Positions 2,046 to 63,599 of a stretch of DNA of 64,000 bases are shown here, piece after piece (positions within the stretch are counted from its first letter, which is position 1; every line of letters begins with the position of its first letter). The position numbers were made by a program, and so were the translations under genes. Location of the stretch: IMG/VR virus record IMGVR_UViG_3300032233_001964, positions 6,498-70,497 of that record; one strand, written 5' to 3'. The DNA is from a virus. Lineage: Duplodnaviria; Caudoviricetes. The notes beneath the pieces are model-generated. The model was not told the DNA's origin, searched no databases, and worked only from the letters and a program-made list of their open reading frames with translations.

Positions 2046-2477
2046 CTATGCGCGCCAGTGCAGACGAAGGTTGCCGTTGGCCGTGCCCGCGTTAAGCTTG
2101 ATCACGACGTAGACAGTCCCACGCACCTCGGCGGCAAGCGCCTGGTAGTGGTAGTCGAGGTCGATGCACGAGATCGTTGCGCCATCGCTGGCAGTCGTGA
2201 AGCCGAACTGCACGGACGAAGTCTGCTCTGCGGTCAGAGGGATGTCGCCCTGGACGTCGCGCGCGAGGAAGAACGTCACGCTAGACGCACCGCCGGCGAT
2301 GGTGTCCATCTCGACGGCGAGGTGCTGGAAGTGCGCGAAGTCGGGCACCGACGCCGTGCGGGGCGCGTTGGTGGTGTCGGCGGTGAGCGTGAACACCTGG
2401 TAACTAGTCGTCAGCGCCGCCTGATGCTTGTAGCTGATGCCTGCGTGATTGAAGCCGCCGTAGCGTGCGATGGACAT
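2046..2477 (-). CDS. Hypothetical virion protein (143 aa)
   Basis: GGAGG SD; directly follows the giant gene. Confidence 0.7.
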   Translation of the reverse strand: MSIARYGGFNHAGISYKHQAALTTSYQVFTLTADTTNAPRTASVPDFAHFQHLAVEMDTIAGGASSVTFFLARDVQGDIPLTAEQTSSVQFGFTTASDGATISCIDLDYHYQALAAEVRGTVYVVIKLNAGTANGNLRLHWRA

Positions 2478-2487
2478 GATGCCTCCC

Positions 2488-5400
2488 TTAGAAAGTTTGA
2501 GTGCCTGCGGTCGTGGTCTTCTTCTTCGGTTCCTCGCGCTTCACCGCCTGCGACGGTGCCGTGAGAGTAACGTCAACACCGGCGTACTTGCGCGCCCAGA
2601 TCAGGATCTCGCCCTGAATGGACTGCCGGCCTTGGCTTTCCAGCGGCTCGTCCTCCAGGCGGATCAGGAGGCTGTTCAGCTCACCGAGCGGGCTGTTCTC
2701 AAACGCCGTCGCCCACACGCCGCCAGGAATGTAGTACCGCTGCTTCTTCAGCACGCCGATGTCGGGGTACTGCTCCTGAAGTCGCCGGATCTCTGCGGTC
2801 TGCTCCGGCGTCAGCGTCGGCAGGGTGCCGTCCTCGTTCACGACGAACGGGTCGACCACCGCGGGAAGTCGCAAGAAGGTCGTTCCGTAGAGGTCGTCCA
2901 TCATCTTGCCGAGCATCGGATGAACCTGCTTCACACCTTCAGGCGTAGCCACCTCGGCGATACGCTTCGGCGCCGGCTTGGTGAACTCACCGGCGAGGAA
3001 CGGACCGAGAATCGGCGACCGCTCTGCGTCCACGATGGGCTTGACGACGCTCAACCAGCCGACCTCGTCAATGCCACCGTCCTCAAGGTCCGTGAAGCCC
3101 GTGCTGGACGCGCCCTTCGCCGCGAGCAGGAACATGGTGGCCGCGACCTGCGTGTGCCACTTCATGCCCGCCTCGATGGTGGAGTCCGGCCAGTACAGCT
3201 CCATGTACGAGTGGTTGTCGCCGAGGAGCGCGTTGTAGGCGCGGACGCCCTCGGTGCGAGGAAAGGGGGCCGCGAACCCGGTACGGTCGCGCATGTACGA
3301 CGAGCGGGCCGCCTTGCTGGGAGCCGCGATGGTGTAAGGGGCGAACTTGGCAAGGTCAGCGAACGAACCCACCATGCGGAGGCGCTGGATCTCGGCAGAC
3401 GCCTCCTGATAGACGCCACCCTCCACGTCGACGGCGCGACCAGAGAGGAGCATCCGCATGGCGCGCTTGTGGTCTTCCGGCGGCCCGTCAGCGCCGTAGG
3501 CTTCCTCAAACGCCTTGATGATGGAGTAGTACGAGTCCTGCAACTCCGGCGACATGCTCTCCACGTCCACGCCGTAGTCATCCACCATCGTGTTGTAGAG
3601 GACGTGGGTCAGGAGGTCGGACGAGCGCTCACGCGCCCGCTTGACGGTCATCATGCGGTAGGCGGCCCACGGGCTGAACAGCGTGTTGAACACTTGGCGG
3701 TTGGCGTTCTTCTGGAAGGCCCAGAACGGGAGCAGCATGCCCACCAGCCAATGGCGGTCGAGCTTCGTCATCGACTGGCTGTAGTCGAAGAGCGCCTTGA
3801 TCGTGATCTGCGCCGCGGTGCGCGGATCGTACCCGGCCTCCATGAGCGTGACCATCGCGCCCAGACGCTCGCGCTCGCTCCACGCCTCGGCGATGTCCGC
3901 GACGCTAGCCTCCAAGGAGGCGAACCCGTTCTTGATCATGGCTCCCGTCGAGGCAGACGCGACGGTCGCCTTCTTGGCAGCATCGCCGGCAAGCACCAAC
4001 TGACCCTCGCGCAGGATGGCGCGCTGGAGCTCGCGCGTGTCGAAGGACGAGAACACGCCCTCCTCGACCGCGATGTCGCGGATGTCACGGTAGCGGTAGA
4101 CCTTGCCGCCGACCGTGAAGCCGCCCTCGACACCCTCAAGGATCGGATTGACCTCGATGCGGTACTTGCCGACCGACATCATCGTGCCGATGCGCGCGGC
4201 TCCGCGGTCACCCAACTTCTGAAGGTTGGCGCGCAACTTCTCCGTGGCCGTGGGCGAGAGGATGCCGGTCGCCTTGCCGACCTCAAGGATTTCACGCACG
4301 CCGGGGATGATCACGAGATCCTGCGCGATGACACGCGCGGTCGAGGCCGCGGCGACGCCGAAGCCCTCCGTGTACGCCATCGCGTTGAAGTGGTCGACCG
4401 TGTTCATCATGAAGTACCGCTGCTTGATGAAGAAGTTGCCGCGGGTCATGCGGGTCTTCATGTAGCGGTACGAGGTGGCGAGCGCATCAGCCGCGCCTAC
4501 GGCCTCTCCCGTGCGGAACTGGGCGCGAGCGAGAACCTGCGCCATGCGGTCGCGGGCCGCGCGCGGGATGTAGAAGTCCACGTCGAGCGCCGCGTCGGGC
4601 ACGAAGTCCACGCCGATGCCGAACTTCTTGATCATCTCGTCCACGCCGGCGATGTTCTTCGCGCCGACCGTCTCGCCGTTCAGCCAGTTGGAGAAGGCGA
4701 GCTGCGTGTCCTTGTCCACGCCCAGGTTCATGCGGACGAGGAACTGCTTCGCCTGGTCGGCTCCACCGAACGCCCCGATCTGCACGGCCACGCGGCGTGC
4801 GTACTCCTCGCCGCTCTTGCCGTAGATGTCGCGGATGTCACCGAGGAGGGTACGGACCATGTCCTTGGAGTCGCCCTTGAACAACTCGCCGTCACGGGCG
4901 GTCACGCCGCCGATGTACGACAGCGTCTCGACAAGCCGGAACTCGTGGCTCGGACGAGCCTTCTCCGGCGCGTTGACCGCATCCCGGATCGCCGCCGCGA
5001 GCGCGGTGCCGATGTCCTTGTCCTGCTTCTCCGGGTAGAGCAACTTCCCGATGGCGCTGTAGAGCGCATCGCTGGTGGCCTTGCGGGTCTTGTCGGCCTC
5101 CGTGAACTTCTCGCCTTCGCCCATGACGAAGCCGAGCGCAACAAGCCGCTGTCCGCGCGCCGCCGGATCCTTGATGTTGACCGTGTCCGCCATGAGGGTC
5201 AGCGCGTCCTTCTCCTCCGGCGTGAACGCGGCAATGGCCCGCTGAACCATGCGGTTGACCGCGCCCATCTTGTCGTGGCCCGACGAGAGGATCGGCCGGC
5301 CGGACACCTTCGCCACGTCGAAGTCGCCCGTCAGGTAGCGGAGGAGCTGCGCGTCGTCCTTCGTTTCGACCGCGTCATTGACGAGAGCCACGGTATCCGC

Positions 5401-8400
5401 AAGCGACTGCTCGACGATGCGTGCCGAGGTGTCCATCGCGCGCCGGAACGCCGGAGGCTGGTTTGCGAGGGTCGTCTCTCCGATCTTCTCGTCGAGGACG
5501 TTGCCGCCAAAGAACATTGCGGTGACGCCACGCAGCGCCTTCTTGGCCTGCTTGGTCATCGGAGCGTCCGTCTCCTTGTCGGAGATCGCGGTCCACAGCG
5601 CGTCGACAGCGTTGTCCTCCTTGTACACCGCAGCCTTGCCCCGGCCCTTGCCGGTGAGGTCGCGGAGGAGCGCCATGCGCGTCTCGGCCTGCGGGAACAG
5701 TCGCTTCTCACGAACCGCCTGCGCCGCCGCCAGGTCATCGAGCGTCCACTTGTCCTTGCCGAGCACCTTGGTGTCGAACTTCAGCACGACGTCCGTGCCC
5801 TTCGGATCACGACCGAGGATCTGCTTGATGTTCGCCTTGGCCTCGTTGACGCGGGTCGCCAACGTGTCCACGTCGAGCGCACCGAGTCCCTTCCGCTTTG
5901 CCTCGCGGGAGAGGACCGTGAGGATGTCCACCTCGGCCTCCGGGCCGCCGAGGATGCCGCGACGGACCGCTTCCTTCAGCGACTGGTCGGCCTGCGTCGG
6001 CTCGGTGGCGAAGAGGCCATCGAACACCCGGCGCACTTCAGGCTGCAACTCGACCCCGATGACCGGATCCTTCACCGCCTTGTAGACGTTGGCGACCGCG
6101 TCCTTGAGCTGAGCGAACGCGCCTTCGAGGCCCGCAGGAGCCTTGCCTTCGGCGACGTACTGCTCGAACGCCTTGGCGAAGAACTCCTCGGCCTTCTCGA
6201 TGTCCGCCGCGTCGCCGGTGAACTCACCGTACTGGTGACCGACGTTCACGCCCATGCCTTGGACCCACGAGGCGATGAAGCCCATGTCCTCGTTGGACAG
6301 GATGTTGCGACGAACGACGTGCGCCACCTCGTGCAGCACCGTCGAGGCGTCCGCGCCCTCGAACAGGTAGATGACGCTGGAGCCATCCTCCAACCACTCG
6401 ACGGCCCCCTTCACCTCACCGGACGGGCTGACCTGCTTGAGGATGCTGGGGTCGGTCGGCGAGAACGTGCCGACGTTGCCGGTGGCCGACTTGATCTGCG
6501 TCGGCTCAAAGACGACGTAGACGGGGTGCTTGATCGCACCTTTGGTTGTTGGCGCGACCACGCTGTAGCTACCATCGCGCTGACGCTTGACGTACTCGTT
6601 GGCGATGACTCCGTCGTATCCGTCGCGCTGAATAGCAGTGAGCGCGTCGGCGCGCATACCGCCGAACTGACGATCTTGGCCAAAGGCGCCCGGATCTCGC
6701 GTTCCGTATCGAGCCCGCACATCAGCGATGTCGTCCACCATGAGCGGGTTGCTCATGCTTAGGTAGACGGGCATCACATTGACCCGCTTCTCTTCCCCCC
6801 GCCAACTGCGCGGCGCTTGGAAGTTCATGCCGTAGTCGGCATAAATATTGGAGCCTTGCGGATCCGTGAAATAGAAGCCGTAGCCAGCCATGCCCTTGCG
6901 CTGCGCGGCCTTGTCGAAGGTGCTGAAGTCGCCGTAGGTCGACGCATGGTACACGACTAGCGGCTTGCCCTCGGCGTCGACCACCTTGGAGTCGCCGAAC
7001 CATCGCTTGAACTCCGGCGTTTCCGTTTGCGCAGCACGGGTAGCCGAGATACCGGAGGGCATCGGGGCTTCCGCTGCAACAGACACAGGAGCGCGACCGG
7101 GTTGCGCGTAGCGGCTCTCGATGAGCGGCGCGAACACGCTGTCCGTCAGCTCAAGCGGCACGCCGTTGCCGATGATGGTAACCGCGGCGTCCTTCGTCTT
7201 CGGCAACGGGTAGTCGTCCGACAGACCCGTGATGCGGGCCAGCACGCGCGGCGTGACCTCACGAACGTCTCCGCCGGGCAGGATGACACGGTGCAGTTCG
7301 CCGGGCGTCGCCTTGATGGTGAACGTCGGGCCACCGGCGAACGCATACGGCAGCTCGTCCTTCCATGCCGAGCCGCCGGCCACCATGATCGGGCGGTCGA
7401 GGTTGCGCCAGTCGATGCCTTCCTTGTCGAGCAGACGCTGCATGAACGGCGGCACGTCCGACTTCGGAAGGCCGTCGACCAGGTCTTCGATGCGCGCGTA
7501 CCAGTCGGCCGGCCCGGTCTTCCCCGGCAGCGGCGGGAGGTCGCCCTCGCGCACAGCGCGAAGGAGCAGGCGCTTGCGAGTCGTGGCCGCGCCGTAGTCG
7601 GCGGCGTTGAACACGTTCTTGTCGAACGTGTAGCCGTTGCGTCGCAGCGCGTCCTCGATCAGTCGAAGAGCGGTGGAGCCCTCGTAGCCAGCGACGTTCT
7701 CCAACGTGAACACCGGCGGCTTGACCTCGTCGATGGCGCGAGCCGTCGCCGTCGCCGTCTCGATGTCGAACGCCTGTTCGCCGGCAGCGTTGGCCGCCTT
7801 GGCCGCGCTGAAGTTCTTGCAGACCGGGGAGGCGTGCAGGTAGCCGATGTTCTTGTCCGCGAGCCGCTTGAAGTCCACAGACTGGACGTTCACGTTCTCG
7901 ACGTGCTCGCCAAACACCTTGCCGTAGTGCGCGGCGATGTCGCCCCGCGCCTCGACGGCGTAGCCTGGCCGCACGACGTTCTGGAGGCCCGCCTCGACGA
8001 GGCCGCCGCCGGAGAACAACGTCGCCGCAACGGGGCGCTGCTCCGGTTCAATGAACCCGCGCAGGTACTCGGCGCGCGTCTCAATCGCCGGAAACGCCGA
8101 TGGCGGGACGCTAACCGAAGGCGGCGGCAGTTCGCCTCGAATCTTGGCCCTTGCCGCGGCTAGCGCCTCTGGCGTCACAGTATCGGGCAACCGGCCTGCC
8201 TTCTTCGCTTGCTCATACGCAGTCTTAGACGCTTCTATCGCACGGTCATACGCGCGTCCGCGCCCCGCACCTGCCGCCGTTTCCGCGCCACGCACTTCCT
8301 CAAACACGATCTGGCGGTACGCGTTCAGCGTACTGTCCCACTCACGAGAAGCCGCTGACAGTTCCTTCTGCGGCACGCGCATCAGCTCATCGGTGCGGTC

Positions 8401-11400
8401 GATGACTTGCGCCAGCATGTTGTTGTCTTCGCGGCGCAAGCCGAGCAGCCCCGCCACCGAGGCCACAAACTTGTCCCAAAGAGTCTCCTTCGCCTTGGGA
8501 CCGACAGGGATCGTCTTCAGCCACGCCTGAAAGTTTGGCTCCGTCATCGCAAAAGCCACAAACTCGCGCGGGTTCGACAGGATGTAGTCAAGCCGCTGCG
8601 CCTTCTCAAACTCCGTAGCCGCGCCGGCTTTCACTCGTTGCGCCCGCAGTGCGACAGCCCGGCGATACGCTCCCTCTAGTTCGGAGTACGCTGCCCGCAA
8701 CGGATTACTCGCGGGCAGCGTCTTCGCGGCGTTCATCCGTTCAACCGTTACGGCGTGTACGGCTTCATGAAGAATCACTTCTTCAATCGGCACAACCTTC
8801 TGCGCCGGCCCGCGCGAAAGCGCACGAATGGAAATGGCGCGCGCGGTAGTGTCAGCCTGGCCGCCTGCCCAGCCGGGCATGCCCGCGAACGCCGCCGCGC
8901 TTTCGTCTACGAAACTAAACTTGAACTTGAGCAAGTCTTTAGTTTCAAGCAGACGTTCTGCCAATCGCTTGTAGTATGGGTTCTGCGTCTGCTCCATGAC
9001 GTAGGCCACCGCCTTATCGGCGGTCTTCGCGTCCTTGAGAGCGGCTTCAGCGCGGCGCCGCGCGTCGAGCGACTCACGCGCCATCTCCGATGTCATCTCA
9101 ACGGGGCGGGCTTCAGCGGGCAGCACAGATACCGGAGTAGCGGGAGCGGCCTCGACAATCTTTGCGGCCTCGGCTTGCGCCTTTGCGGCAGCCGGGATAA
9201 CCGTAGGGGTAGCGGGGGCTGCGACAGTAGGCGTCGGGGCTTCGACGGCCGGAGCAGCGCGGCGCGTCTTCTCCGCACGCAACTCGTCGAGCATCGGTCC
9301 TGGCGGCCCCTCTTCCAGGGCGAGGATGGCGTTGTCGAGTTCCTCGTCTGCGAGATCCGCGAGGGTCGCCGGGGGAGCCTCGACCTTCGGTGCTTCAACC
9401 GGAGGTGCCTCGGCCTTCGGCGGGCGGGCCGCACGCTTGCGCTTTGCGGGAGCCGCGGCGGGTGCCGCCTCCACGACAGTCGGAGCGGCCGGAGCGGCGG
9501 GCGCGGGTGGCGCGGTCACTCGACGGAGGTTCTCGATCTCCATCTCCAACTCGCCTTGGCGGAACGCATCGTCGCTCTGGACGGCTTCCTCTAGTTCGGC
9601 TTCGAGTTGCGTGATGCGCTCCGCGTCGGTCGTTGCCACCTTCTTGGCCTCGCGCGCACGGCGCGCCTTCTCTCGCTTGATGGCGTCGAGGGCGTAGGCT
9701 TCGCCCTCCTTCACGCCGTCGGCCCGTAGCAGCGCCTCGATCTCGTCGAGCTCCTCGTCGCCCAGGCGAAGCACCGTCTCGCGCAACTTCAACTTGGCAC
9801 GAGCGATAGCCGCCTTCGTCGGCGCGGCGGGGGTCGCTGCCGCAGGCGCGCCTCCGGTCGGCACCTTGCCTGCCTTCAACTCTCCGGCGAGACGCTTGAG
9901 GTCTTCCGGCGTGCCGCGACGGATGGCGGGGAAGATCTCCTGGTACAGCGCGAACGGGCTGACCTCGCGGGACTTCGCCGCGCCCTCGATCATCTTGTCG
10001 ATGATCGTGATGGTGGCGTAGGCTTCCTTGAAGTCCTGCTCCGGGAACGCCTTGCGGAGATGGTGCAGGAGCAGGAGGCCGCCCGACGTGAGCCGGATCG
10101 GCTCGCCGCTCTGCAACTTGGGAGCCACCTCGTCGAAGAGTTCCAACGGTTCGACGCGCAGGCGAGCCGTGCTGGCGATCTCGTCGCGCAGCAACTGGGC
10201 CGCGACGCCGCGCGCGGTGTTGTTCTGCTCGATGGCCTTGAGGGCGCGGTCGAAGAGGCCGATGTCGGCCGCCTCGATCTCCTCGATGGTCTTGCCGCGC
10301 ATCTCCGCGATCTTCGTCTCGGTGCGCCCGCCGATGGCCTTGTAGGCGTCCTGCCGTGCCATCTTGTAGGCGTCGGTCCCGAACTCCTTGTCGGCCTTCA
10401 GCGCGCCCTCGACGGCAGCCTTGAACTGCTTCTGGTCGAGCAGGGCCGCCGGTGCCTGAGCGGAGATGAGGTCCGCCATGCGCGTGACCTGCGCCGCGCT
10501 GAGCTGACGCTCTGCCGGAAGGTTCTCGAACACGTCGAGGACGCGCCCGCGCACGTACTCCTTCGCGTACTGGGAAAGAGAACGACCCGACTTCCTCGCG
10601 TTGACGTACTCGGTCTTCGCCTTCTGCACGCGGTCGAGGAGCCGCCGGGTGTCGTACAACTCGGCGTAGTCTGCCTGCTCGATGCTAGCCGGACCCGTGA
10701 CGGCCTTGCGGTCGGACGGATGCAGGAACGGACGACCGGCGAAGACCTTGGCCTGCTCCGGCGCGGCGTTGGCGATCAGCGCCGCCAGGTCCGTCTCAAG
10801 GATGTCGGACTGCGGCTCGGCCAACTTCTGGAACCGGGCGACGGCGGCGTCGGAAGAGTCGAGGTTCGACGCCACGTCGGGCAGGGCGCTGCGGAGTTCC
10901 TTCTCTGCTGCGGCGGCCGTCTCGTAGTCTCCGGCCTTGCGTGCCCGCGCGATGGTTTCAAGAAGCGCCGTTGCTTCGGGCGCGATCTTGCGAACCTTGA
11001 TCGCGCGGCTGGCAGCCTTCACGGCTTTGGCGGCCTCTCCGGCCCCTGCAAGTGCGTCGGGGAAGAGGATGGAGGCGGCGAAGCCCGCGGCCACGACCGG
11101 AGCCTTGACGTAGGCCGCCGAGTCCTTGGTGGCGTCGAGGCTGTACTCCAACAGGTTGGCACCGGACTGGATGCCCTCTCCGACCGTCTGCCCCGACAAC
11201 CCGGCCGTCACGGCGGACTGCGGGATGTCGATGACGCGGAACAGGACGCCCATCGGCGACTCTTGACGGAACACCGCTTGCCGCTTGTTGTTGAAGCCGA
11301 TGATCTCGACGTTCGGCTTCAGAGCGTCCAACACGCCAGGCGAGGCGCGGCCCTCGCGGACCTCGACGTCACCCAGCGTGACGACCGGCGTCCACTGCCC

Positions 11401-12348
11401 GACCGTCTTGTAGGCGATGACCTCGTTGATGGCGCGCTTGCGGAGCGCGGCCATCTTCTCCATCACGCCGACGTCGTTCACCTTGATGTTCGCGCGCTTG
11501 CGAAGATCCTCGACGCGCTGGTCGATGTACTTCTGCGTGTTGCCCGTGGCGATGGCCCGACCGTAGAGGTCGTAGGCGGTCACGGCACTCGGATCCTTCT
11601 GGAGCGCATCGACGAGGAGCTGGGCGACGGCGTAGCCATGCTCGCCGGGCTTCGTGACCTCCGGCAACTCGGCCTGCGTGCCGGCCATCGTGTAGCCGCC
11701 GAGCGCGCCCGCGGGACCGAAGCCCCTGTCCGCGCCAGAGCGCACGAGCTCGATGGTGTCCCCGGCGTCTCCCTTCTGCGCCTTCTCGACATCCTGGGCG
11801 AGCTTGTTGAACGCCTGGTCGCGCTCCTCCACCGACATGAAGCCAATGACGCCGCGCTCCTTGCCGGCCTTGGCGATCTCGTCGTAGGTGCGGCCCTTTC
11901 GACCGGCGTCATAGATGGCCTGAAGATCGACGCCCTGTGCCTGCGCGATGCGCTTCAGTTCTTGCTGAGAGATCCCCAAGTCCTCTGCGGCAGGCGCGAC
12001 TGCCCCGTCCACACTGAGCGCACCAGAGTAGTCGTACACCTTCTTGTAGTCGATGGGCCGCGCCACATCAGGAGGAAGTACCAACTTCGGAGGCGCGGGC
12101 GCGGAGACTTCGGGAGCCTTCGGTGCCTTGATTTCTTCAACTTTCTTCGGGACACCAGCAGCGCGACGAGTTACCGAAGGGGCAGGCAGGGCTGCGCTTG
12201 GCTTTGGGAGAGCCTCCATGCCGGTCGGAGCGGCGGGAACGCGGGCCGTCGTAGGCGCAGGTACGGCAACGGGGGCCGGTGCGGGAGCGGACTGCGCCTT
12301 CTCCAGTTCTGCCATCCGAGCCATCGTCTCTTCGTAGGTGCGCGCCAT
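2488..12348 (-). CDS. Giant polyvalent internal virion protein (3,286 aa): zincin peptidase + C5 DNA methyltransferase + ART-PolyVal-like + zincin peptidase + ejection-protein-like C-terminus
   Basis: HEAVH (~8760); FSGGG/ASPVC/ENV/RKR/GNGV MTase motifs (~7110-8040); WFGDSKVVD..VYH..GFYFT..YLSMSNPL..GYDGVI..VVFEPTQIKS (~6435-7025); HEVAH (~6325). Confidence 0.85.
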   Translation of the reverse strand: MARTYEETMARMAELEKAQSAPAPAPVAVPAPTTARVPAAPTGMEALPKPSAALPAPSVTRRAAGVPKKVEEIKAPKAPEVSAPAPPKLVLPPDVARPIDYKKVYDYSGALSVDGAVAPAAEDLGISQQELKRIAQAQGVDLQAIYDAGRKGRTYDEIAKAGKERGVIGFMSVEERDQAFNKLAQDVEKAQKGDAGDTIELVRSGADRGFGPAGALGGYTMAGTQAELPEVTKPGEHGYAVAQLLVDALQKDPSAVTAYDLYGRAIATGNTQKYIDQRVEDLRKRANIKVNDVGVMEKMAALRKRAINEVIAYKTVGQWTPVVTLGDVEVREGRASPGVLDALKPNVEIIGFNNKRQAVFRQESPMGVLFRVIDIPQSAVTAGLSGQTVGEGIQSGANLLEYSLDATKDSAAYVKAPVVAAGFAASILFPDALAGAGEAAKAVKAASRAIKVRKIAPEATALLETIARARKAGDYETAAAAEKELRSALPDVASNLDSSDAAVARFQKLAEPQSDILETDLAALIANAAPEQAKVFAGRPFLHPSDRKAVTGPASIEQADYAELYDTRRLLDRVQKAKTEYVNARKSGRSLSQYAKEYVRGRVLDVFENLPAERQLSAAQVTRMADLISAQAPAALLDQKQFKAAVEGALKADKEFGTDAYKMARQDAYKAIGGRTETKIAEMRGKTIEEIEAADIGLFDRALKAIEQNNTARGVAAQLLRDEIASTARLRVEPLELFDEVAPKLQSGEPIRLTSGGLLLLHHLRKAFPEQDFKEAYATITIIDKMIEGAAKSREVSPFALYQEIFPAIRRGTPEDLKRLAGELKAGKVPTGGAPAAATPAAPTKAAIARAKLKLRETVLRLGDEELDEIEALLRADGVKEGEAYALDAIKREKARRAREAKKVATTDAERITQLEAELEEAVQSDDAFRQGELEMEIENLRRVTAPPAPAAPAAPTVVEAAPAAAPAKRKRAARPPKAEAPPVEAPKVEAPPATLADLADEELDNAILALEEGPPGPMLDELRAEKTRRAAPAVEAPTPTVAAPATPTVIPAAAKAQAEAAKIVEAAPATPVSVLPAEARPVEMTSEMARESLDARRRAEAALKDAKTADKAVAYVMEQTQNPYYKRLAERLLETKDLLKFKFSFVDESAAAFAGMPGWAGGQADTTARAISIRALSRGPAQKVVPIEEVILHEAVHAVTVERMNAAKTLPASNPLRAAYSELEGAYRRAVALRAQRVKAGAATEFEKAQRLDYILSNPREFVAFAMTEPNFQAWLKTIPVGPKAKETLWDKFVASVAGLLGLRREDNNMLAQVIDRTDELMRVPQKELSAASREWDSTLNAYRQIVFEEVRGAETAAGAGRGRAYDRAIEASKTAYEQAKKAGRLPDTVTPEALAAARAKIRGELPPPSVSVPPSAFPAIETRAEYLRGFIEPEQRPVAATLFSGGGLVEAGLQNVVRPGYAVEARGDIAAHYGKVFGEHVENVNVQSVDFKRLADKNIGYLHASPVCKNFSAAKAANAAGEQAFDIETATATARAIDEVKPPVFTLENVAGYEGSTALRLIEDALRRNGYTFDKNVFNAADYGAATTRKRLLLRAVREGDLPPLPGKTGPADWYARIEDLVDGLPKSDVPPFMQRLLDKEGIDWRNLDRPIMVAGGSAWKDELPYAFAGGPTFTIKATPGELHRVILPGGDVREVTPRVLARITGLSDDYPLPKTKDAAVTIIGNGVPLELTDSVFAPLIESRYAQPGRAPVSVAAEAPMPSGISATRAAQTETPEFKRWFGDSKVVDAEGKPLVVYHASTYGDFSTFDKAAQRKGMAGYGFYFTDPQGSNIYADYGMNFQAPRSWRGEEKRVNVMPVYLSMSNPLMVDDIADVRARYGTRDPGAFGQDRQFGGMRADALTAIQRDGYDGVIANEYVKRQRDGSYSVVAPTTKGAIKHPVYVVFEPTQIKSATGNVGTFSPTDPSILKQVSPSGEVKGAVEWLEDGSSVIYLFEGADASTVLHEVAHVVRRNILSNEDMGFIASWVQGMGVNVGHQYGEFTGDAADIEKAEEFFAKAFEQYVAEGKAPAGLEGAFAQLKDAVANVYKAVKDPVIGVELQPEVRRVFDGLFATEPTQADQSLKEAVRRGILGGPEAEVDILTVLSREAKRKGLGALDVDTLATRVNEAKANIKQILGRDPKGTDVVLKFDTKVLGKDKWTLDDLAAAQAVREKRLFPQAETRMALLRDLTGKGRGKAAVYKEDNAVDALWTAISDKETDAPMTKQAKKALRGVTAMFFGGNVLDEKIGETTLANQPPAFRRAMDTSARIVEQSLADTVALVNDAVETKDDAQLLRYLTGDFDVAKVSGRPILSSGHDKMGAVNRMVQRAIAAFTPEEKDALTLMADTVNIKDPAARGQRLVALGFVMGEGEKFTEADKTRKATSDALYSAIGKLLYPEKQDKDIGTALAAAIRDAVNAPEKARPSHEFRLVETLSYIGGVTARDGELFKGDSKDMVRTLLGDIRDIYGKSGEEYARRVAVQIGAFGGADQAKQFLVRMNLGVDKDTQLAFSNWLNGETVGAKNIAGVDEMIKKFGIGVDFVPDAALDVDFYIPRAARDRMAQVLARAQFRTGEAVGAADALATSYRYMKTRMTRGNFFIKQRYFMMNTVDHFNAMAYTEGFGVAAASTARVIAQDLVIIPGVREILEVGKATGILSPTATEKLRANLQKLGDRGAARIGTMMSVGKYRIEVNPILEGVEGGFTVGGKVYRYRDIRDIAVEEGVFSSFDTRELQRAILREGQLVLAGDAAKKATVASASTGAMIKNGFASLEASVADIAEAWSERERLGAMVTLMEAGYDPRTAAQITIKALFDYSQSMTKLDRHWLVGMLLPFWAFQKNANRQVFNTLFSPWAAYRMMTVKRARERSSDLLTHVLYNTMVDDYGVDVESMSPELQDSYYSIIKAFEEAYGADGPPEDHKRAMRMLLSGRAVDVEGGVYQEASAEIQRLRMVGSFADLAKFAPYTIAAPSKAARSSYMRDRTGFAAPFPRTEGVRAYNALLGDNHSYMELYWPDSTIEAGMKWHTQVAATMFLLAAKGASSTGFTDLEDGGIDEVGWLSVVKPIVDAERSPILGPFLAGEFTKPAPKRIAEVATPEGVKQVHPMLGKMMDDLYGTTFLRLPAVVDPFVVNEDGTLPTLTPEQTAEIRRLQEQYPDIGVLKKQRYYIPGGVWATAFENSPLGELNSLLIRLEDEPLESQGRQSIQGEILIWARKYAGVDVTLTAPSQAVKREEPKKKTTTAGTQTF

Positions 12349-12450: not shown

Positions 12451-13281
12451 TCAGTCGATCAGGCCGTACTCCCGACGAGCCGCGGCCAACTCAGCGACCC
12501 GCTGAAGCCGCGCCCGCTGCTGCTTTGCTAGCTCAGGAAACTGGCTCCGCGGAAACTCTGGATCATCCTGCTTTCGTCGAATGTCTGCTTGGGCCGCGTC
12601 ATACGCACTCTTCGCCGCCTTGTACTCTGCGTCGATCGCGGCGGCGCGTTCTGCGGCCGTTTGTGGAACGTCGAGTTCTTGGGTGGTAGGGCGCTGCGAT
12701 GTCGTGCTGGATAGCACGGTTGTCAGCGGTGTTCCGCGCATCCTGGGGTCGGCCGCGAGCAGCGCGCTAGACGGAGACACGACTGCCGACCCAGTAATGG
12801 CACCGGGGTACGGACTACGCGCCATAGTGGTCGGTGTGGTGTAGGAGGCGCCGATCTGTCCAGAACGGCGGAGTTCCGCGATGCGACCTACCGCCTCAAG
12901 ATACGGGACCAAGTCTGCGCGTGACTCCTGCGGAAGGTACATCTCCATCGCGTCCGACTGCCCAAGATCTTCGTAGGAGAAGTCTGCCGCCGACGTGCCT
13001 TCGGGGTATGACTGCCCATATGTCGAAGTCAGCGGCATGCCCGGCGACTGAGAAGCCGGCCTGTAGGGCACCGGCGCGCTCGTCTTTGGCGCAGCGGGTG
13101 CCTTGGGAGCCGCTGTGCGAGGGGCCGTGGACGCCGCCGACCTTGCTCCCGTTGAGGCTGCGGGCAGCGTAGCCGTCGCGGGCTTCGGCGCCGGCGCAGG
13201 AGCAACAGCCGTCTGCGCGGTGGCGGGTAGCGTCGTGGATGTTGCGGCGGCGGATGCGCCCTTTCCAACTACTGATGGCAT
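12451..13281 (-). CDS. Ala/Pro/Ser-rich putative internal virion protein
   Basis: Coupled ORF between ejection-protein candidates. Confidence 0.6.
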   Translation of the reverse strand: MPSVVGKGASAAATSTTLPATAQTAVAPAPAPKPATATLPAASTGARSAASTAPRTAAPKAPAAPKTSAPVPYRPASQSPGMPLTSTYGQSYPEGTSAADFSYEDLGQSDAMEMYLPQESRADLVPYLEAVGRIAELRRSGQIGASYTTPTTMARSPYPGAITGSAVVSPSSALLAADPRMRGTPLTTVLSSTTSQRPTTQELDVPQTAAERAAAIDAEYKAAKSAYDAAQADIRRKQDDPEFPRSQFPELAKQQRARLQRVAELAAARREYGLID

Positions 13282-13283
13282 GG

Positions 13284-16200
13284 CTACCTCGTGATGGCTT
13301 GCTTCTGGAAGCGGCGGAAGGTGTCGAGGCCACGGGGTGCGGGCGGTACGACCGGCGCACCTTCTGCCTCGGCTGCGGCCTTCTCTTCCTCGAAGGCACG
13401 ACGCTTCTTCTCTTCATCGGCCTTCTTCTGCGCGGGCGTCATGCCGGCCTGTCGGGCCTCGACGTTGGAGAAGGCACGCTCCACGAACGGAAGCCGCGTT
13501 GCTGGTGCTGCCTGCTCGTACCCGGACGGAGGCCCGCTCGACGGCTGCTCGGCGGCCATCTCGGCCCGCTTGACCGACTGCCGGGACTCATAGCGCGCCG
13601 TGGGCGAACCAGTAGACACGCCAGAGAGCGACTGCCCCATCGGACGCTTCAGCCGCTCACGGAACTCGCGGCCGAGGGCGGCCACCTCTGCCAACGCAGA
13701 TCCGGGCTTCTCGGCTTCCTTGGCCTTGATGGCGGCAGCCTTCTCGCGGAGGTCGGCGAAACGCTCGCTCGCCCCGCGCGATAGAAGGCCCATCGCTTGG
13801 CGGCCCTTGCCGATGTCGAGGGCCGACGCCACGCCGGTTCCGGGAGATGGCATCTCGCCCTGCGGCCCGACAGCACCCGTTGGCTTCGGCGCTTCCACGC
13901 CGGCGAACGGCGTGCGCGGCTCCTGCCCTCGCGTTGCTGCGGCGGGTCCGGGCAGACCCGTCGATTCCGGCAGCGTCTCGTCGGTCGCGGGCAGCGCAGC
14001 CATCGCAGCCTGCTGCTTCATCTGCTCGCGCCGCTTGAACTCCGGCAGTCGGATAGGCGGCAGTCCCTTCCGTTCGCGCTCGGCCTCTCCTGCGGTCGGT
14101 GCAGCCTCGACCTCCCCCGCCTCGCGCTTCTTGAACAGGCCGCCGACAGCCTGCCCGGCCTTGGTGAGCGCCTCGCGGATGTCTCCACCGACCGTGCGCC
14201 GCGCGCCGGTGTCGATGAAGGTGCTGCCACGACGCTCCGTGACCGAGGGCGTCGGCGCGGGCTCCCGCTTGCCGAGGCCCGCCATGCGCGTCTCGACGGC
14301 CTCCGCCTCGGACGGCGGCAGGACGCGAAGATCTTCGCGCTCCGTGATGGCGTCGGCCTCGTCCGATCCGAAGGGGATCGTCTTGGGCTGCGCCGGCATC
14401 ACCTCGCCGCGAGGCGGGGCGACCATCGTCACACCGGCCTGGTCGATGCGGTACTGCGCTCCGTCCGACGTCTCCGCGTAGTAGCCTCGCGGAGCCGGCT
14501 TCGCGGCAGGAGCAGCGGCCGGAGCGGCGGCAGGGGCGGGAGCCGCTGCGGTCGGGGGCGCAGGAGCCGCAGGAGGCGCGGCGACCGGAGTGCCGGCCTC
14601 GCCCAACTTCGTCACGACCGTGTCGAACACACGCTCGCCGCGCTTGAACTCCGTCTTGCCCGGCATCGGCTTGCCTTCCGGTGCGCCGACCACGCGGACG
14701 GTGTCGTTGTCTACGACCTTGAACGTGTAGCCGGAGTCGTCCTTGAAGAAGCGCGTAGGCTCGGCGGCGGCCGGAGCCGCGGCTGCGGGTGCCTCGGCTG
14801 CCGTCATCAACTGCCGCACGGCACCGACCTCGGCGGACGACACCGCGCCGCCGGCGACAAGCGACTCAAGACGCGCCTGCGCGTTCGCGGGATCGGGATC
14901 GGAAGCGGCGTCGAGGGCGAGCGCCGACACCGGCGGCAGACCCGCTTCCGCGGCGGCCCGCTGCATCTGCTGCTCACGGATACGGGCCGTGCGGACCTGC
15001 TCCGGCGTGAGCGACGGCTGTACCACGCCAGCGGCGCGGCGCTGCGCCCGACGCTCTAGCGAGTTCGTCAGCGGCTCGCCGCGTCCGCGCGTCTCCAGCA
15101 CCTCGATCTTCGCGCCAGGCGAGAAGACGTACTGGCCGTTGTTGACGCTGAACACCCCAGGTCCACGCTCCGCGATGTCACGCGCGTTGGCCTTGTCGAG
15201 GTAGCCGTCGAACGTCATCTCGCCGAGCGACGGCAGCTGGTCCGCCGAGACGAGCTTGATGGGCGAGGCTGCGTCGATGGCCTTCTTCTCGTTGTCGTCC
15301 GCGAATCCGACGCCGTTCTCCGCGAGGACGGCGGGCAGGTTCTGGAAGTCCGCATCGCCCATGTAGCGGAGCGGCTTTCCGTCCGCGCTGAACACGACGG
15401 CGGGCTGGAAGGACAGCCCTGCCGGCACAGCGCCCTCGACCGCGACGGTGCTGTTGTTGGTCGGGTCGTACTTGTAGACGACACCAGCGCTGCGGAAGTA
15501 GGTGGAGCCGTCGACGGCCTGTGCGTAGTCGATGCCCTGTGGGGCGTAGCCAGACTTTCGGAGCTCGGCGCGGTACGCCTCCGGGCTGAGAACCGTCCCA
15601 TCGAGGACGGCGTACTGGCCGGTCCCCGTGATGTCGTTCTTCTCAAGGAGGCGAGCGCGCTCCTCCGGGTCCGTGACGGTCACGCGGACACGCTTGCCGG
15701 TGTTGGACGTGCCGAGGAACCCGACGGGCTTGCCCGTCCTGCGCTGCTGGTCGAACGCGAGGATGGCGCGCTCGTCGTGTCGACCCTGCGAGTAGATGAC
15801 CTCGCCATTCTCGTCGATGCGGGACTGTCCGATGTCGAAGCCGTTGTCCTCGGCCCACGCCCGAAACTCAGGGTTGGCGAGGAGCCGCCCCATGCGGGTG
15901 CGAAGACCCTCCTTCCCCGGCTGGTAGGCGAGGTCGCGGAACAGCGCCTCCTTCTCCTGGAGTTCGCGGTAGCGGCTGTCAAGGGACTTGATCCGCTCTT
16001 CTTCCCGCTTCATCTCCTCCGGCGTCAGTCCGATGAGGGTGCGGACCTGCTGCTTGGCCTTCTCGGAAAGGATACCGAGGCGCTCGATCTGCTCGTCGGT
16101 CAGCGGGCCGCCCGCACCGACGATGTCCATCATCTCCTTGCCGGTGGCGTCGAGTTCGCGCATCGCCCCGGTAGACGCCGCGTTGGCGTCCTTCCCATAG

Positions 16201-16796
16201 GTGAAGAACTCGCGGATCTGATTCTGCAACTGCTGGTTGTTAGGCGAGATCTGCGCCGCGGCCTGCGCGGGGTCGATGTCGTCGATGCCTTGACCGAAAG
16301 TCTTGACCGCCATCTGATCGGCGAGCGACGCGATGTCGGAGTCGTTGCGCTTGTAGTCAACACCCTGCTGGTTGAACGTGTTGAACATCCGCTGGTAAGC
16401 GCCGGCTCGATCACCTGTTTCCAATACGGCGATAGCGTCGCTGAGTCGCGTGCTGGCGTACTGCGTGCTGTTGGTGGCGATCTTCGTGTAGTTGTCCGAC
16501 AGGTTCATGCGGAGGCGCGTCGCCTGCTCGGCCGTCACTCGACGATCCTTGCCCGCCGTCTCCTGCAAGTCGGTGAACGCCTCAAGCAGCGACTCCTGCA
16601 ACTTGGCCTCGGCCTTGAGCTGCTCGGTGAACTGCTTGAGGGCCAACTCGTTGATGCCGCCTTCGCGGTACTTCGTCAGTTCCTGGCTCGCCTTCAGGTA
16701 CAGCGCAGCCATCTTCTCGTCGGACGTCGGCAGGGTGTCGTCGTAGACGCCGCCGATGGAGTAGAACAGCGGAAGGACAGATTGAATATCAGCCAT
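13284..16796 (-). CDS. Putative internal virion (DNA ejection) protein, 1,170 aa
   Basis: Helical N-terminus, Ala/Pro-rich linker; position matches podoviral ejection-protein operons (inference). Confidence 0.65.
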   Translation of the reverse strand: MADIQSVLPLFYSIGGVYDDTLPTSDEKMAALYLKASQELTKYREGGINELALKQFTEQLKAEAKLQESLLEAFTDLQETAGKDRRVTAEQATRLRMNLSDNYTKIATNSTQYASTRLSDAIAVLETGDRAGAYQRMFNTFNQQGVDYKRNDSDIASLADQMAVKTFGQGIDDIDPAQAAAQISPNNQQLQNQIREFFTYGKDANAASTGAMRELDATGKEMMDIVGAGGPLTDEQIERLGILSEKAKQQVRTLIGLTPEEMKREEERIKSLDSRYRELQEKEALFRDLAYQPGKEGLRTRMGRLLANPEFRAWAEDNGFDIGQSRIDENGEVIYSQGRHDERAILAFDQQRRTGKPVGFLGTSNTGKRVRVTVTDPEERARLLEKNDITGTGQYAVLDGTVLSPEAYRAELRKSGYAPQGIDYAQAVDGSTYFRSAGVVYKYDPTNNSTVAVEGAVPAGLSFQPAVVFSADGKPLRYMGDADFQNLPAVLAENGVGFADDNEKKAIDAASPIKLVSADQLPSLGEMTFDGYLDKANARDIAERGPGVFSVNNGQYVFSPGAKIEVLETRGRGEPLTNSLERRAQRRAAGVVQPSLTPEQVRTARIREQQMQRAAAEAGLPPVSALALDAASDPDPANAQARLESLVAGGAVSSAEVGAVRQLMTAAEAPAAAAPAAAEPTRFFKDDSGYTFKVVDNDTVRVVGAPEGKPMPGKTEFKRGERVFDTVVTKLGEAGTPVAAPPAAPAPPTAAAPAPAAAPAAAPAAKPAPRGYYAETSDGAQYRIDQAGVTMVAPPRGEVMPAQPKTIPFGSDEADAITEREDLRVLPPSEAEAVETRMAGLGKREPAPTPSVTERRGSTFIDTGARRTVGGDIREALTKAGQAVGGLFKKREAGEVEAAPTAGEAERERKGLPPIRLPEFKRREQMKQQAAMAALPATDETLPESTGLPGPAAATRGQEPRTPFAGVEAPKPTGAVGPQGEMPSPGTGVASALDIGKGRQAMGLLSRGASERFADLREKAAAIKAKEAEKPGSALAEVAALGREFRERLKRPMGQSLSGVSTGSPTARYESRQSVKRAEMAAEQPSSGPPSGYEQAAPATRLPFVERAFSNVEARQAGMTPAQKKADEEKKRRAFEEEKAAAEAEGAPVVPPAPRGLDTFRRFQKQAITR

Positions 16797-16799
16797 CGT

Positions 16800-17414
16800 C
16801 TACTTCCCCTTGTAGTATGGAGCGACACCCGCCTGCTGCCCGCTGACCGCCTGCTGCCCGCTCGTAGTCGCTTCACCGAGGCGCAAGTCGCGAATCGTCT
16901 TCGCGGCGGCAGCCGTGTCAAGTCCGTACTGCTGCGCTCCTGCGCCCACCACGGCACCTGTGTCTCGCGCTTCCTTGCGCTTGGCGGCGATGCGGTTCAT
17001 CACGTCAGCGAACCGCTGCTGCGCGACCCGCTGGGACTGCTCGTCGACCGTGCCGGCAGCCCGCGCCATCTGCTCCTGCTGCCCTGCCGCGAGCTGACCA
17101 AGCGCGGCCATCTGCGCGCCGGAACGACCGAAGCCGCCCTGCGCTGCGGCAGAGCGCCGAAGTCCCGCCTCGATGCCAGCGGTCTGCGCCTGCAACGCGC
17201 GCTGCGTGCCTGCGAGCATCGTGCGCTTCTCCGCTTCGGAGAGGCCGAGTTTGCCCTGCTTCAGTGCATCGACGTCCTTCTTCAGTTGCTTACGGTACGC
17301 GATGGCCGCCGGGTCCACCGCAGATGCGATGGCCTCGCCTGCGGTCCCGATAAGGCTCGCAGCTCCTTGTCCGGCGAGCCCGACCAGCGGCGCGGCAGCA
17401 GCGATAGGCAACAT
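16800..17414 (-). CDS. Putative small ejection protein (Ala/Gln/Gly-rich)
   Basis: ATG 17414 after GAGGTG SD; composition like P22 gp7/T7 gp14-type proteins. Confidence 0.6.
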   Translation of the reverse strand: MLPIAAAAPLVGLAGQGAASLIGTAGEAIASAVDPAAIAYRKQLKKDVDALKQGKLGLSEAEKRTMLAGTQRALQAQTAGIEAGLRRSAAAQGGFGRSGAQMAALGQLAAGQQEQMARAAGTVDEQSQRVAQQRFADVMNRIAAKRKEARDTGAVVGAGAQQYGLDTAAAAKTIRDLRLGEATTSGQQAVSGQQAGVAPYYKGK

Positions 17415-17462
17415 ATTCACCTCGCGGCGAGCATATCATGTTGCCCCCGCGCAGGCGACGGG

Positions 17463-56343: not shown

Positions 56344-56473
56344 CGTCATCGTCCATCCGCTCGAAGTCGCGACGGAACGCCCGTTCGAGGCGGTGCAGCG
56401 CACGATGGAAGACGAAGACGGTAGCGACGACGATGCTAGCGAGCATCAACAGGATGGCGAGTGTGGGGGTCAT
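56333..56473 (-). CDS. Small membrane protein (46 aa)
   Basis: MTPTLAILLMLASIVVATVFVFHRALHR..DDDDAV; overlaps the polA start. Confidence 0.5.
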   Translation of the reverse strand: MTPTLAILLMLASIVVATVFVFHRALHRLERAFRRDFERMDDDDAV

Positions 56474-61858: not shown

Positions 61859-62170
61859 ATGAACGACAGCCCCATCAGCGTGATCAACCCCAGCACCGAT
61901 CCCTTCATCCTACTCGTCGAGCGACATCGAAAGGCGCGGCACTGGTCGTTCGCCGAGCTTGCGCGGCGCGGCGGCCTCACGCAGCCCGAAGTCAGTCGCG
62001 TCGTCCACGGCATCCGCATGCCGACGCTGCGTCACGTCCGCGGCCTGGCCGAGGCGTTCGCGTCCGCGCCGTCGAGCCTCACCGAGCCAGGATCGGCGGC
62101 AGAGTGGGTCGCCCTGCTCGTTGACCTCGCTGAGAACGCCCGCCTGTCCGTGCGGACAAAGGACGTGTAG
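61859..62170 (+). CDS. XRE-family HTH transcriptional regulator
   Basis: RHWSFAELARRGGLTQPEVSRVVHGIRMPT; AGGAGG SD. Confidence 0.85.
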   Translation: MNDSPISVINPSTDPFILLVERHRKARHWSFAELARRGGLTQPEVSRVVHGIRMPTLRHVRGLAEAFASAPSSLTEPGSAAEWVALLVDLAENARLSVRTKDV

Positions 62171-62171
62171 C

Positions 62172-63599
62172 GTGCAACCTCTTCGCTTCGGCAGCGTCTG
62201 CTCAGGCATCGAGGCCGCGTCCGCGGCGTGGGAGTCGCTTGGCTGGCTCCCCGTGTGGTTCGCGGAGATTGAGCCGTTTCCGAGCGCCGTCTTGGCGCAC
62301 CACTACCCCGACGTTCCGAACCTCGGAGACATGACGCGCCTTCCTGCGCGCATCCTCGCCGGGGAGATCGAAGCACCGGACGTCTTCGTCGGCGGCACGC
62401 CGTGCCAGTCGTTCTCCGTGGCTGGGCTGCGGAAGGGGCTGGACGATCCGCGAGGCCAGCTGACCCGTTCGTTCGTGGAGATCGCGGACGCCATCGACAC
62501 CGTTCGGGCCGCGCAAGGACTGCCGCCCGCCATCATCTTGTGGGAGAACGTCCCGGGAGTGCTTAGTGACAATGGAAACGCCTTCGGAAACTTCCTCGGC
62601 GCGCTCGCGGGGGAAGACATCGCCCTTGACCCATCAGGGGGAAAGTGGACGAACGCTGGTCTTGTGCTTGGACCCACGCGAGAAGTCTGCTGGCGCGTCT
62701 TGGACGCCCAGTACTACGGAGTGGCCCAACGACGCCGTCGTGTGTTCGTTGTCGCAAGTTCTCGAGCCGGCGGAGTTCGTGCCTCGCAGGTTCTACTTGT
62801 CGAGTCGGGCGTGCGCCGGGATTCTCCGCCGAGCCGAGAAGCGCGGCAAGGAGTTGCCGGCGCTGCTGCTACAGGCGCTGACACAGGTGGCGGGGAACGC
62901 GGAGCCGGAAGCAACGGAGGACGAGGGGGAGGAGTAGCCGTTCCTCTTCAAGAGGTGGGAAAGCGAACGGGCGTGAGCACTACTGACCCACGCGCCGGCA
63001 TCGGCATCGGCGCGTCTGGAGATCCGATGTACACCCTTCAAGCGGGAGCGCAGCATGGCGTGGCCCACGTCGTCGCCCCGCCGCTGACCGCGACGAATGA
63101 CCCGAGCCGCAGCCCGCAGTCGTCGGAAGTGACAGCGCAGGTTCACGCTGTGCTACAGGCGCAGACCATCGCGCACGTTGACGTGGTCGGCACCCTGAGC
63201 GACGGCGCCCACAACGGTGGCGGACTCAACGGACAGGACGCTTACACGGGGCGGATCTTGCCCGTCGTGCCCTACGACCTGTTTCAGGTCACCGCGCCGA
63301 TCAACCGGCAGAACCGGGACACGACGAGTCCGTGCCACACGCTGGCGCGGGACAACGCGGCGCACGCGGCTGTCGTGCAGTCGATGGCCGTCCGCCGCCT
63401 CACGCCGCGAGAGTGCGAGCGTCTTCAAGGCTTCCCCGATGACTACACGAAGATCTCGTGGAAGAAGAAGCCGTCGTCGGAGTGCCCGGATGGGCCTCGG
63501 TACAAGGCGCTCGGGAACAGCATGGCCGTGCCCTGCATGAACTGGATCGGCCGCAAGATCGACAAGGAGTACCGGAAGCGTCATGCCGCTGACACCTGA
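62172..63599 (+). CDS. C5 cytosine DNA methyltransferase with long variable region
   Basis: SVCSGIEA, GGTPCQSFS, WENVPG, QRRRRVF, LTPRECERLQGF, YKALGNS. Confidence 0.9.
   Translation: MQPLRFGSVCSGIEAASAAWESLGWLPVWFAEIEPFPSAVLAHHYPDVPNLGDMTRLPARILAGEIEAPDVFVGGTPCQSFSVAGLRKGLDDPRGQLTRSFVEIADAIDTVRAAQGLPPAIILWENVPGVLSDNGNAFGNFLGALAGEDIALDPSGGKWTNAGLVLGPTREVCWRVLDAQYYGVAQRRRRVFVVASSRAGGVRASQVLLVESGVRRDSPPSREARQGVAGAAATGADTGGGERGAGSNGGRGGGVAVPLQEVGKRTGVSTTDPRAGIGIGASGDPMYTLQAGAQHGVAHVVAPPLTATNDPSRSPQSSEVTAQVHAVLQAQTIAHVDVVGTLSDGAHNGGGLNGQDAYTGRILPVVPYDLFQVTAPINRQNRDTTSPCHTLARDNAAHAAVVQSMAVRRLTPRECERLQGFPDDYTKISWKKKPSSECPDGPRYKALGNSMAVPCMNWIGRKIDKEYRKRHAADT

Follow-up and report, generated by a model that had tools for sequence, protein, structure and literature searches.

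A giant, nearly cysteine-free protein of an uncultured freshwater phage is probably an ejection protein with exchangeable enzyme cassettes

The window analyzed here, a stretch of 64,000 nucleotides that spans bases 6498-70497 of the 70,497-bp IMG/VR virus record IMGVR_UViG_3300032233_001964 (100% complete according to CheckV), contains a giant minus-strand gene whose product of 3,286 amino acids (aa) is probably a large, cargo-carrying ejection protein of an uncultured freshwater phage (genome size ~70 kb), composed of a conserved frame and of enzyme cassettes that are swapped in frame. The frame consists of an N-terminal module (N-module) and a C-terminal part that comprises a small HExxH domain (z2) and a long helical region (C-core), and between these lies a variable cargo bay, in which cassettes are gained, lost and exchanged. 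In the window, the predicted contents of the bay are another HExxH domain (z1), a C5-cytosine DNA methyltransferase (MTase) of a clade that we denote by its motif IV signature, SPVCKN, and an ADP-ribosyltransferase (ART) of the ART-PolyVal type. An earlier note on this DNA had described the product as a polyvalent protein, and the presence of two or more disparate activities (C5 MTase, ART-PolyVal and two HExxH domains) in one polypeptide encoded in the late, structural block of a phage bears this out; the protein is of a known kind, the phage-type polyvalent protein (Iyer et al. 2017, PMC5512222). The features of the gene are the following.

2488..12348, minus strand: giant open reading frame (ORF) P0001, 3,286 aa plus stop, from the ORF call and the alignment of relatives from residue 1
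9514..12348, minus strand: N-module, aa 1-945, conserved, Ala/Pro-rich at aa 20-100, with a single hydrophobic segment (aa 410-437)
9064..9513, minus strand: Ala/Pro/Glu-rich linker, aa 946-1095, start of the variable cargo bay, delimited by composition and by the end of identity to sister proteins
8314..9063, minus strand: z1, aa 1096-1345, HExxH...E domain of the ejection-protein type, with H1194, E1195, H1198 and E1262 invariant
7024..8094, minus strand: predicted C5 DNA MTase cassette, aa 1419-1775, SPVCKN clade, from PF00145, phrog_116 and alignment with HhaI
7819..7821, minus strand: codon of Cys1510, predicted nucleophile (motif IV) and sole cysteine of the 3,286 aa
6445..7023, minus strand: predicted ART-PolyVal cassette, aa 1776-1968, from PF18760, with H1801, D1912, Y1944 and E1948
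6049..6444, minus strand: z2, aa 1969-2100, small HExxH domain at the start of the conserved C-terminal part, with HEVAH at 2006, E2054 and E2055
2491..6048, minus strand: C-core, aa 2101-3286, mostly helical, always C-terminal and family-defining, from a homologue scan (206 clusters)

The gene is one uninterrupted frame of 3,286 codons plus stop, and its start codon is sound because close relatives align with the protein from residue 1. The single ORF and the domain order initially reported, namely, a HEAVH zincin motif, the C5 MTase, the ART and a HEVAH motif, were both confirmed.

The protein family is defined by the last ~1,200 residues, which were detected in 206 clusters at E <= 1e-3 in a scan of 1.84 billion representatives; this common part is always C-terminal, in proteins of about 1,400 to 6,100 aa, and was identified in 38 related IMG/VR loci. 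When hidden Markov models (HMMs), one per part of the protein, were run over all retrieved proteins and 37 IMG/VR loci, a recurring plan consisting of the N-module, a variable middle, z2 and the C-core was observed in 180 database proteins as well as in the 37 loci, most of the contigs of which are 65-76 kb in length. The minimal members, at about 1,700 aa, consist of the N- and C-terminal parts and are cargo-free, and the middle segment can be as short as about 120 or longer than 2,000 residues. The N-module is 25-50% identical to those of distant members and showed no match in Pfam, PHROG or the Protein Data Bank (PDB). For the N-module and the C-core, no family was found in Pfam, including the LPD families derived from the work of Iyer et al. 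2017, and for the C-core, no PDB match was obtained by profile search, Foldseek or VIA-align; given that the 1,200-residue model (pLDDT 68.8) was searched whole, a new fold is not demonstrated by this result. The cargo is similarly dark: the cargo segments of nine relatives (L004, L005, L007, L008, L011, L012, L019, L021 and L039), each of 741-1,540 aa and jointly amounting to 9,860 residues, yielded zero Pfam matches at 1e-4. The frame is a previously undescribed family with a mostly Pfam-dark cargo bay.

The closest family members differ by in-frame swaps of cassettes at domain borders, and contigs from natural populations provide direct evidence of such exchange. The nearest relatives share a frame with 75-93% identity and have different middles; in the sister protein P0004, the N-module is 89% and the C-terminal part 93% identical to those of the protein in the window, and the middle is wholly different. 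The breakpoints of similarity to the relatives, at aa ~945-1070, ~1418, ~1756-1790 and ~1965-1969, are the cassette borders. The middles of these relatives are as follows.

P0004 and P0005: unrelated middle, Pfam-dark
P0002: predicted MTase and a variant ART, z1 absent
P0003: YunG-like domain and predicted MTase
P0006: predicted ART alone
P0007: predicted MTase alone

The same type of exchange was observed when contigs from four sequencing runs of four other studies were compared along the giant gene. In the drinking-water and lagoon contigs, the ART cassette (about aa 1770-1968) is missing, with a joint at 6443/7043, 23 other letters in between and a net loss of 192 codons, such that the MTase is fused to z2 in frame. 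In two freshwater runs, 427 bases of the ART core are exchanged for 301 others (joint 6519/6947, net loss of 42 codons), and the replacement matches the ART of the P0002 type; the Ala/Pro-rich linker likewise differs in length, in frame and by 66 and 48 codons, in the freshwater contigs. One run contains a 1,190-bp contig that matches the z1 region of the window exactly and has a depth of 12.5, compared to about 58 for the flanking contigs. Although depth per contig is not a reliable measure, this hints that only a minority of the phages in that run carry z1.

In many diverse members of the family, z2 is preceded by a motif of the form hydrophobic-L/F-x-Q (ILKQ, FLYQ, VMFQ, ELFQ, PLYQ), which in the protein from the window occupies aa 1969-1972 (6433-6444, minus strand), and a similar ALYQ is located at the end of the N-module (aa 799-802). 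The pattern L[YF]Q was observed 61 times vs. about 37 expected and clusters before z2 and at the N-module end. As a marker of every cassette border, this pattern was rejected because it is not present at each border; with this modest enrichment, the motif may be a border or cleavage signal.

Evidence on the delivery of the protein comes from z1 (motif HEAVH at aa 1194), in which an alignment of 14 homologues shows no variation at H1194, E1195, H1198 and E1262. The z1 profile matches chain G of 9SFN, an 'internal virion protein' (E = 4.9e-37), the tetrameric ejection protein gp48 of PhiM1 (8VB2, E = 1.6e-11), and residues 2198-2320 of the virion RNA polymerase (vRNAP) of phage N4 (E = 1.7e-4), and the HExxH motif and the downstream Glu are retained in all three (9SFN, 8VB2 and N4 gp50). 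The matched N4 stretch lies within subdomain C1 of the C-terminal domain (CTD), the bearer of a conserved HExxH (PMC13434306). Thus, in view of this homology, z1 is, as judged from profile comparison, a domain typical of large podophage ejection proteins, and the phage is probably short-tailed. In PhiM1 gp48 (T7 gp16 class; PMC11440229, PDB 8VB2) and 9SFN chain G, which are about 1,300 aa long, the homologue lies within the body of the protein itself, whereas here it sits in the variable cargo bay, and the rest of the giant protein has no match to either. A search for related loci with z1 alone returned no loci.

The closest overall counterpart among the characterized proteins is the N4 vRNAP, gp50 (PMC13434306; PDB 9PNR and related entries). 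The two proteins are similar in size (3,500 vs. 3,286 aa) and in layout, with an N-terminal part, an enzymatic middle, an HExxH subdomain and then about 1,100-1,200 helical residues; both are encoded at the far end of a run of late structural genes, and the N4 protein is cysteine-free, a property nearly shared by the protein in the window. The middle is different, being an RNA polymerase domain in N4, whereas here it contains z1, MTase and ART, with no match to PF00940. Nothing significant was found when homology between the N-module and the N4 N-terminal domain (NTD), or between the C-core and the N4 CTD, including its subdomain C2, was sought with BLASTP, hmmsearch, hhalign, PDB profile search, Foldseek and VIA-align; the resemblance of the frame to N4 vRNAP is therefore an analogy.

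The protein contains one Cys among 3,286 residues (the chance of one or none at a background of 1% is about 1.6e-13), and this is the predicted MTase nucleophile, C1510. Cysteine depletion is a property of the family: among the 102 members longer than 1,800 aa, cysteine accounts for 0.024% of the residues and 47 proteins lack it altogether, and the motif IV cysteine is retained wherever a family member has the MTase. Four nearby late proteins, all encoded on the minus strand, are cysteine-free as well (276 aa, 12451-13281; 1,170 aa, 13284-16796; 206 aa, 16800-17420; 150 aa, 22006-22458) and, by analogy with N4, may make up the rest of the ejection set; in most of the phage's other proteins, the cysteine content is 0.5-2.6%. 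None of the three known N4 ejection proteins (gp50, gp51 and gp52) has a cysteine, and the same is true of the N4 capsid protein and gp57, such that the signature is suggestive, not specific. With this reservation, we take cysteine depletion as independent support for exit of the giant protein from the capsid through the envelope and for a requirement for C1510. Taken with the homology of z1 to solved ejection proteins, the near-absence of cysteine, as in N4 gp50, gp51 and gp52, provides good, though indirect, support for ejection.

The MTase cassette matches PF00145 well above the gathering cut-off (E = 2.1e-21, 77.1 bits vs. 22), phrog_116 (E = 5e-33) and, in a phmmer search, M.HhaI (E = 7e-9), and the PDB sequence search agrees (M.HhaI, DNMT1). 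Motifs I (FSGGG, 1445-1449), IV (SPVCKNFS, with C1510), VI (ENV, 1550-1552), VIII (RKR, 1591-1593) and X (GNGVP, 1727) are all recognizable. The identification as a full C5 MTase motif set accordingly holds for motifs I, VI, VIII and X and requires amendment for motif IV, where the canonical Pro-Cys is replaced by Pro-Val-Cys-Lys; compared to M.HhaI, Val takes the place of Pro80 and Lys that of Gln, and the Cys is kept. These substitutions, together with the score of 72.7 bits against NCBIfam TIGR00675 (dcm), which is under the curated cut-off of 100.65, would be compatible with a domain that is not a DNA-cytosine methylase, being either inactive or directed at RNA or another substrate. We consider this distinctly unlikely: the variant motif IV along with motifs I, VI, VIII and X is conserved in 80/80 retrieved homologues, the most distant of which are 45% identical (motif IV reads SPVCKN[FY]S in 78 of these; in the remaining two, SPVCKN is retained and S-S comes next, or Y-S after a leading Val), the whole protein has no cysteine apart from the nucleophile, and the match to DNA MTases is full-length, including the region after motif VIII. 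These observations define what appears to be a new 'PVC' clade of C5 methyltransferases, here with the predicted nucleophile as the sole cysteine of the protein.

Most of the MTase homologues reside within polyvalent proteins of ~5,000 aa that also bear PF18760, the ART-PolyVal family, and PF00145 and PF18760 occur together in giant proteins in 73 of the 120 rows of the homologue listing. Furthermore, z1, MTase and ART are combined also in P0242 and in the P0044 cluster. Thus, the suggestion that this combination of domains might be undescribed is not upheld. The P0044 cluster (4,889-4,904 aa, on contigs of about 70 kb) encompasses z1, HATPase, an MTase of the same clade (57% identity), a YunG-like domain and ART; its members showed no match to the C-core HMM and so lack the C-terminal module of the family.

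The ART assignment stands as proposed. The domain matches PF18760 over its entire length (aa 1791-1962, profile positions 1-140 of 140; E = 1e-23, 85.1 bits vs. the gathering cut-off of 31.2). Among 117 homologous ART domains, the column of H1801 is 97% His, D1912 and Y1944 are conserved, and the column of E1948 contains Asp in 54% and Glu in 12%. With respect to the H-Y-D configuration (Iyer et al. 2017), H1801 is present and E1948 falls in the Asp/Glu column; the strand-2 Tyr was not confidently placed in the alignment. Both the MTase and the ART domain look intact.

Under the reading that we favor, the frame would probably serve for packaging into the capsid and for passage into the cell, like the NTD and CTD of N4 vRNAP, and the protein would be housed in the head and leave it together with the DNA. 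Once in the cytoplasm, the MTase would use host S-adenosylmethionine to methylate cytosines of the incoming genome, a form of anti-restriction in cis as proposed for P1 DarB, the ART would modify a host target at the expense of host NAD+, in the manner of T4 Alt, and metal binding and peptide-bond cleavage are possible functions of the HExxH domains. DarB is a DNA methyltransferase carried in the virion and thought to protect incoming DNA in cis (PMC5512222), and Alt is an ADP-ribosyltransferase packed in the head, injected and active on host proteins (PMC5512222, PMC9503650); by analogy with these two, the mechanism of a co-injected MTase and ART appears reasonable. The enzymes themselves differ. 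In DarB, an N6-adenine MTase is joined to an SF2 helicase, whereas here a predicted C5-cytosine MTase is found, with no helicase domain (Pfam, PHROG), and Alt is a separate small protein of the R-S-E clade, whereas here an ART-PolyVal domain of the H-Y-D/E type lies inside a giant protein. The polyvalent proteins of Iyer et al. share with the protein from the window the giant polypeptide, the late or virion block, the unrelated enzymes, the co-occurrence of ART-PolyVal and HExxH, and the exchange of cassettes between elements (Iyer, Burroughs, Anand, de Souza and Aravind 2017, PMC5512222). However, their methylases are mostly DarB-like N6-adenine enzymes fused to SF2 helicases (in the main text of that paper, the word 'cytosine' appears in the reference list only), as opposed to the helicase-free C5 MTase described here.

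The phage encodes another, free MTase.

61959..63599, plus strand: predicted free C5 methyltransferase, 546 aa, with a canonical motif IV (GTPCQSFS) and 13 cysteines, from PF00145 (E = 2.2e-41)

The free and the embedded MTase are similar at the level of motifs only and are not recent paralogues; because of this strong divergence, their specificities are probably different. The free enzyme bears on an alternative scenario, in which the enzymes of the giant protein act late in the producing cell, for example, the MTase on progeny DNA before or during packaging, and fusion merely sets timing and dose. This scenario fits the position of the gene within the late block, and DNA methylated before packaging would be protected at entry, whereas methylation after entry must outrun restriction. 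We nevertheless regard it as unlikely: for progeny DNA, the free canonical MTase is already available, the near-total loss of cysteines with retention of the catalytic one fits an enzyme that survives exit from the capsid, the same cassettes occur in other giant virion-type proteins, and DarB and Alt are precedents for packaged enzymes that are active in the new host (PMC5512222).

Whether the protein is cut apart by its own proteases, as originally suggested, is a separate issue. Among 27 chosen motif-bearing z2 homologues, H2006, E2007, H2010, E2054 and E2055 are invariant, and in the clade that includes the protein from the window, the z2 motif is intact and accompanied by an invariant 'AEE.FA.AFE.Y' helix. 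In the AlphaFold2 model of z2, three strands are followed by the HExxH helix and the Glu helix, the order of the minimal zincin layout (PMC5512222), and the profile produced only weak matches in the PDB; weak matches to LF-type zincins were also obtained. For z1, which is homologous to the N4 domain unified with zincins by Iyer et al. using HHpred (PMC5512222), the fold searches found PhiM1 gp48 alone, with no classical protease on top, and Foldseek with the z1 model came back empty; neither z1 nor z2 reached any peptidase family in Pfam. The claim of two zincin proteases is thus sustained as to the HExxH motifs, both of which are conserved beyond chance, and not as to membership in a recognized peptidase family.

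In the broader family, the HExxH motif of z2 is degenerate in 27/90 relatives (~30%), with the remainder of the domain retained, and the family tree requires at least 9 changes in the state of the motif. Therefore, as far as can be judged from the alignments, catalysis by z2 is dispensable in many lineages, and a structural role is the more likely constant one. We also considered the possibility that a z1 cassette compensates for the loss of the z2 HExxH, given that, in raw counts, 15/27 relatives with a degenerate motif vs. 10/63 with an intact one carry z1; with only 7 independent pairs on the tree (sign test, p about 0.6), this idea was rejected.

The degeneration of z2 despite domain retention, the failure of both domains to reach a curated peptidase family and of the z1 fold search to place a classical protease on top, and the homology of z1 to C1 of N4 vRNAP, a protein that is reported to be packaged unprocessed (PMC5512222, section 'Peptidases') and to whose C1 the structure paper gives no protease role (PMC13434306), all fit a protein that remains whole, like N4 vRNAP, and the HExxH domains of which are structural, metal-binding or active elsewhere rather than self-processing. 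We give this alternative nearly even odds. The invariance of H, E, H and the downstream Glu in every examined z1 homologue, including three solved ejection proteins, points instead to a selected metal site, and the minimal zincin layout of z2, with its weak matches to LF-type zincins, and the HHpred connection of the N4 domain to zincins also argue against this alternative. The claim of cleavage by the protein's own proteases is not supported: self-cleavage is a possibility and the weakest part of the proposed mechanism.

Several points weigh against the interpretation of the giant protein as a cargo-carrying ejection protein with co-injected enzymes. The N-module and the C-core resemble nothing known, so the role of the frame in packaging and ejection is derived by analogy; the evidence for a short tail consists of the z1 homologues and one weak internal-virion-protein match of a neighboring gene product. 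Motif IV of the MTase deviates from the canonical Pro-Cys, and we know of no SPVCKN-clade enzyme that has been assayed. Given the free canonical C5 MTase, the need for another protective methylase is less apparent, any methylation that follows entry would be in a race with restriction, and the two HExxH domains fall outside the curated peptidase families.

With respect to the genomic setting, the giant gene is located far along a minus-strand late block that begins at the major head gene; the terminase and portal are encoded on the opposite strand. It had been described as the last gene of an ejection-protein operon, which is contradicted by a small gene that starts 10 bp further on and is retained in this position in most related loci. 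The adjacent genes are the following.

2046..2477, minus strand: 143-aa downstream gene, 10 bp past the giant gene, with a tblastn match at this position in 32/37 related loci
12451..16796, minus strand: two upstream genes, 276 aa and 1,170 aa, cysteine-free by count, candidates for further ejection proteins

Given its location directly downstream in 32/37 related loci, the 143-aa gene is probably a functional partner of the giant gene; its product has no match in Pfam, PHROG or NCBIfam and appears beta-rich from sequence. Counterparts of the upstream 1,170-aa protein occur in 17 related loci; neither it nor the 276-aa protein matched any family or PDB entry, and a neighboring 706-aa protein had no PDB match. 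The 15 neighboring proteins compared to Pfam, PHROG and NCBIfam showed almost no matches, the weak internal-virion-protein match being in one of these genes.

The phage additionally encodes a family A DNA polymerase, a DUF927 primase-helicase, an SbcC-like protein, an SNF2 helicase and the free C5 methyltransferase. The DNA polymerase (52582-56403, minus strand; 1,273 aa) carries at its N-terminus a domain resembling uracil-DNA glycosylases and, near aa 903-934, an HNH endonuclease domain. An RNA polymerase was not detected in the genome by family search, PF00940 included, although the control genomes of this search were also silent, so that absence is unproven; in a tblastn search with N4 gp50, the sole match was the HExxH stretch (E = 2.9). 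With no RNA polymerase found, the early genes are presumably transcribed by the host enzyme.

No close cultured phage was found among 50,697 phage records by megablast and tblastn, which returned matches to the MTase and ART domains and weak matches to the z2 stretch of the C-terminal part only, and the terminase and capsid proteins have only remote relatives in the same records. Parts of the giant gene are present in freshwater, drinking-water and lagoon metagenome runs; the runs listed for this DNA included no RNA run, which has no bearing on whether the gene is expressed. The sole relative in the species-genome collection is L041 (JBBAQZ010000044.1, 70,027 bp; C-core 50% identical), a phage-sized contig in the bin of a metagenome-assembled genome of Myxococcaceae. 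This makes Myxococcaceae a possible host, a weak lead that agrees with the G+C content of the window (65-70%).

A more far-reaching proposal, which we put forward tentatively and with some doubt, is that the family is the RNA-polymerase-less counterpart of N4 vRNAP, that is, a widespread cysteine-free carrier in which the middle slot is a general bay for injected effectors, mostly of no known family, and which in this phage would hold a 'PVC' C5 MTase that methylates the entering genome, the first cytosine-methylating analogue of DarB.

The in-frame swaps between sister phages and within freshwater populations are a clean natural example of the evolution of such proteins. The nine Pfam-dark cargo segments represent a pool of uncharacterized, probably injected domains and may conceal new counter-defence enzymes, and the cysteine-free signature may serve as a cheap sequence marker of ejected proteins in uncultured phages. 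A virion-borne C5 methyltransferase, if confirmed, would broaden the DarB concept, which concerns adenine, to the methylation of cytosine. If the frame truly carries the middle into the host, this family would be a natural delivery vehicle, and its cargo bays would amount to a catalogue of early-acting phage effectors.

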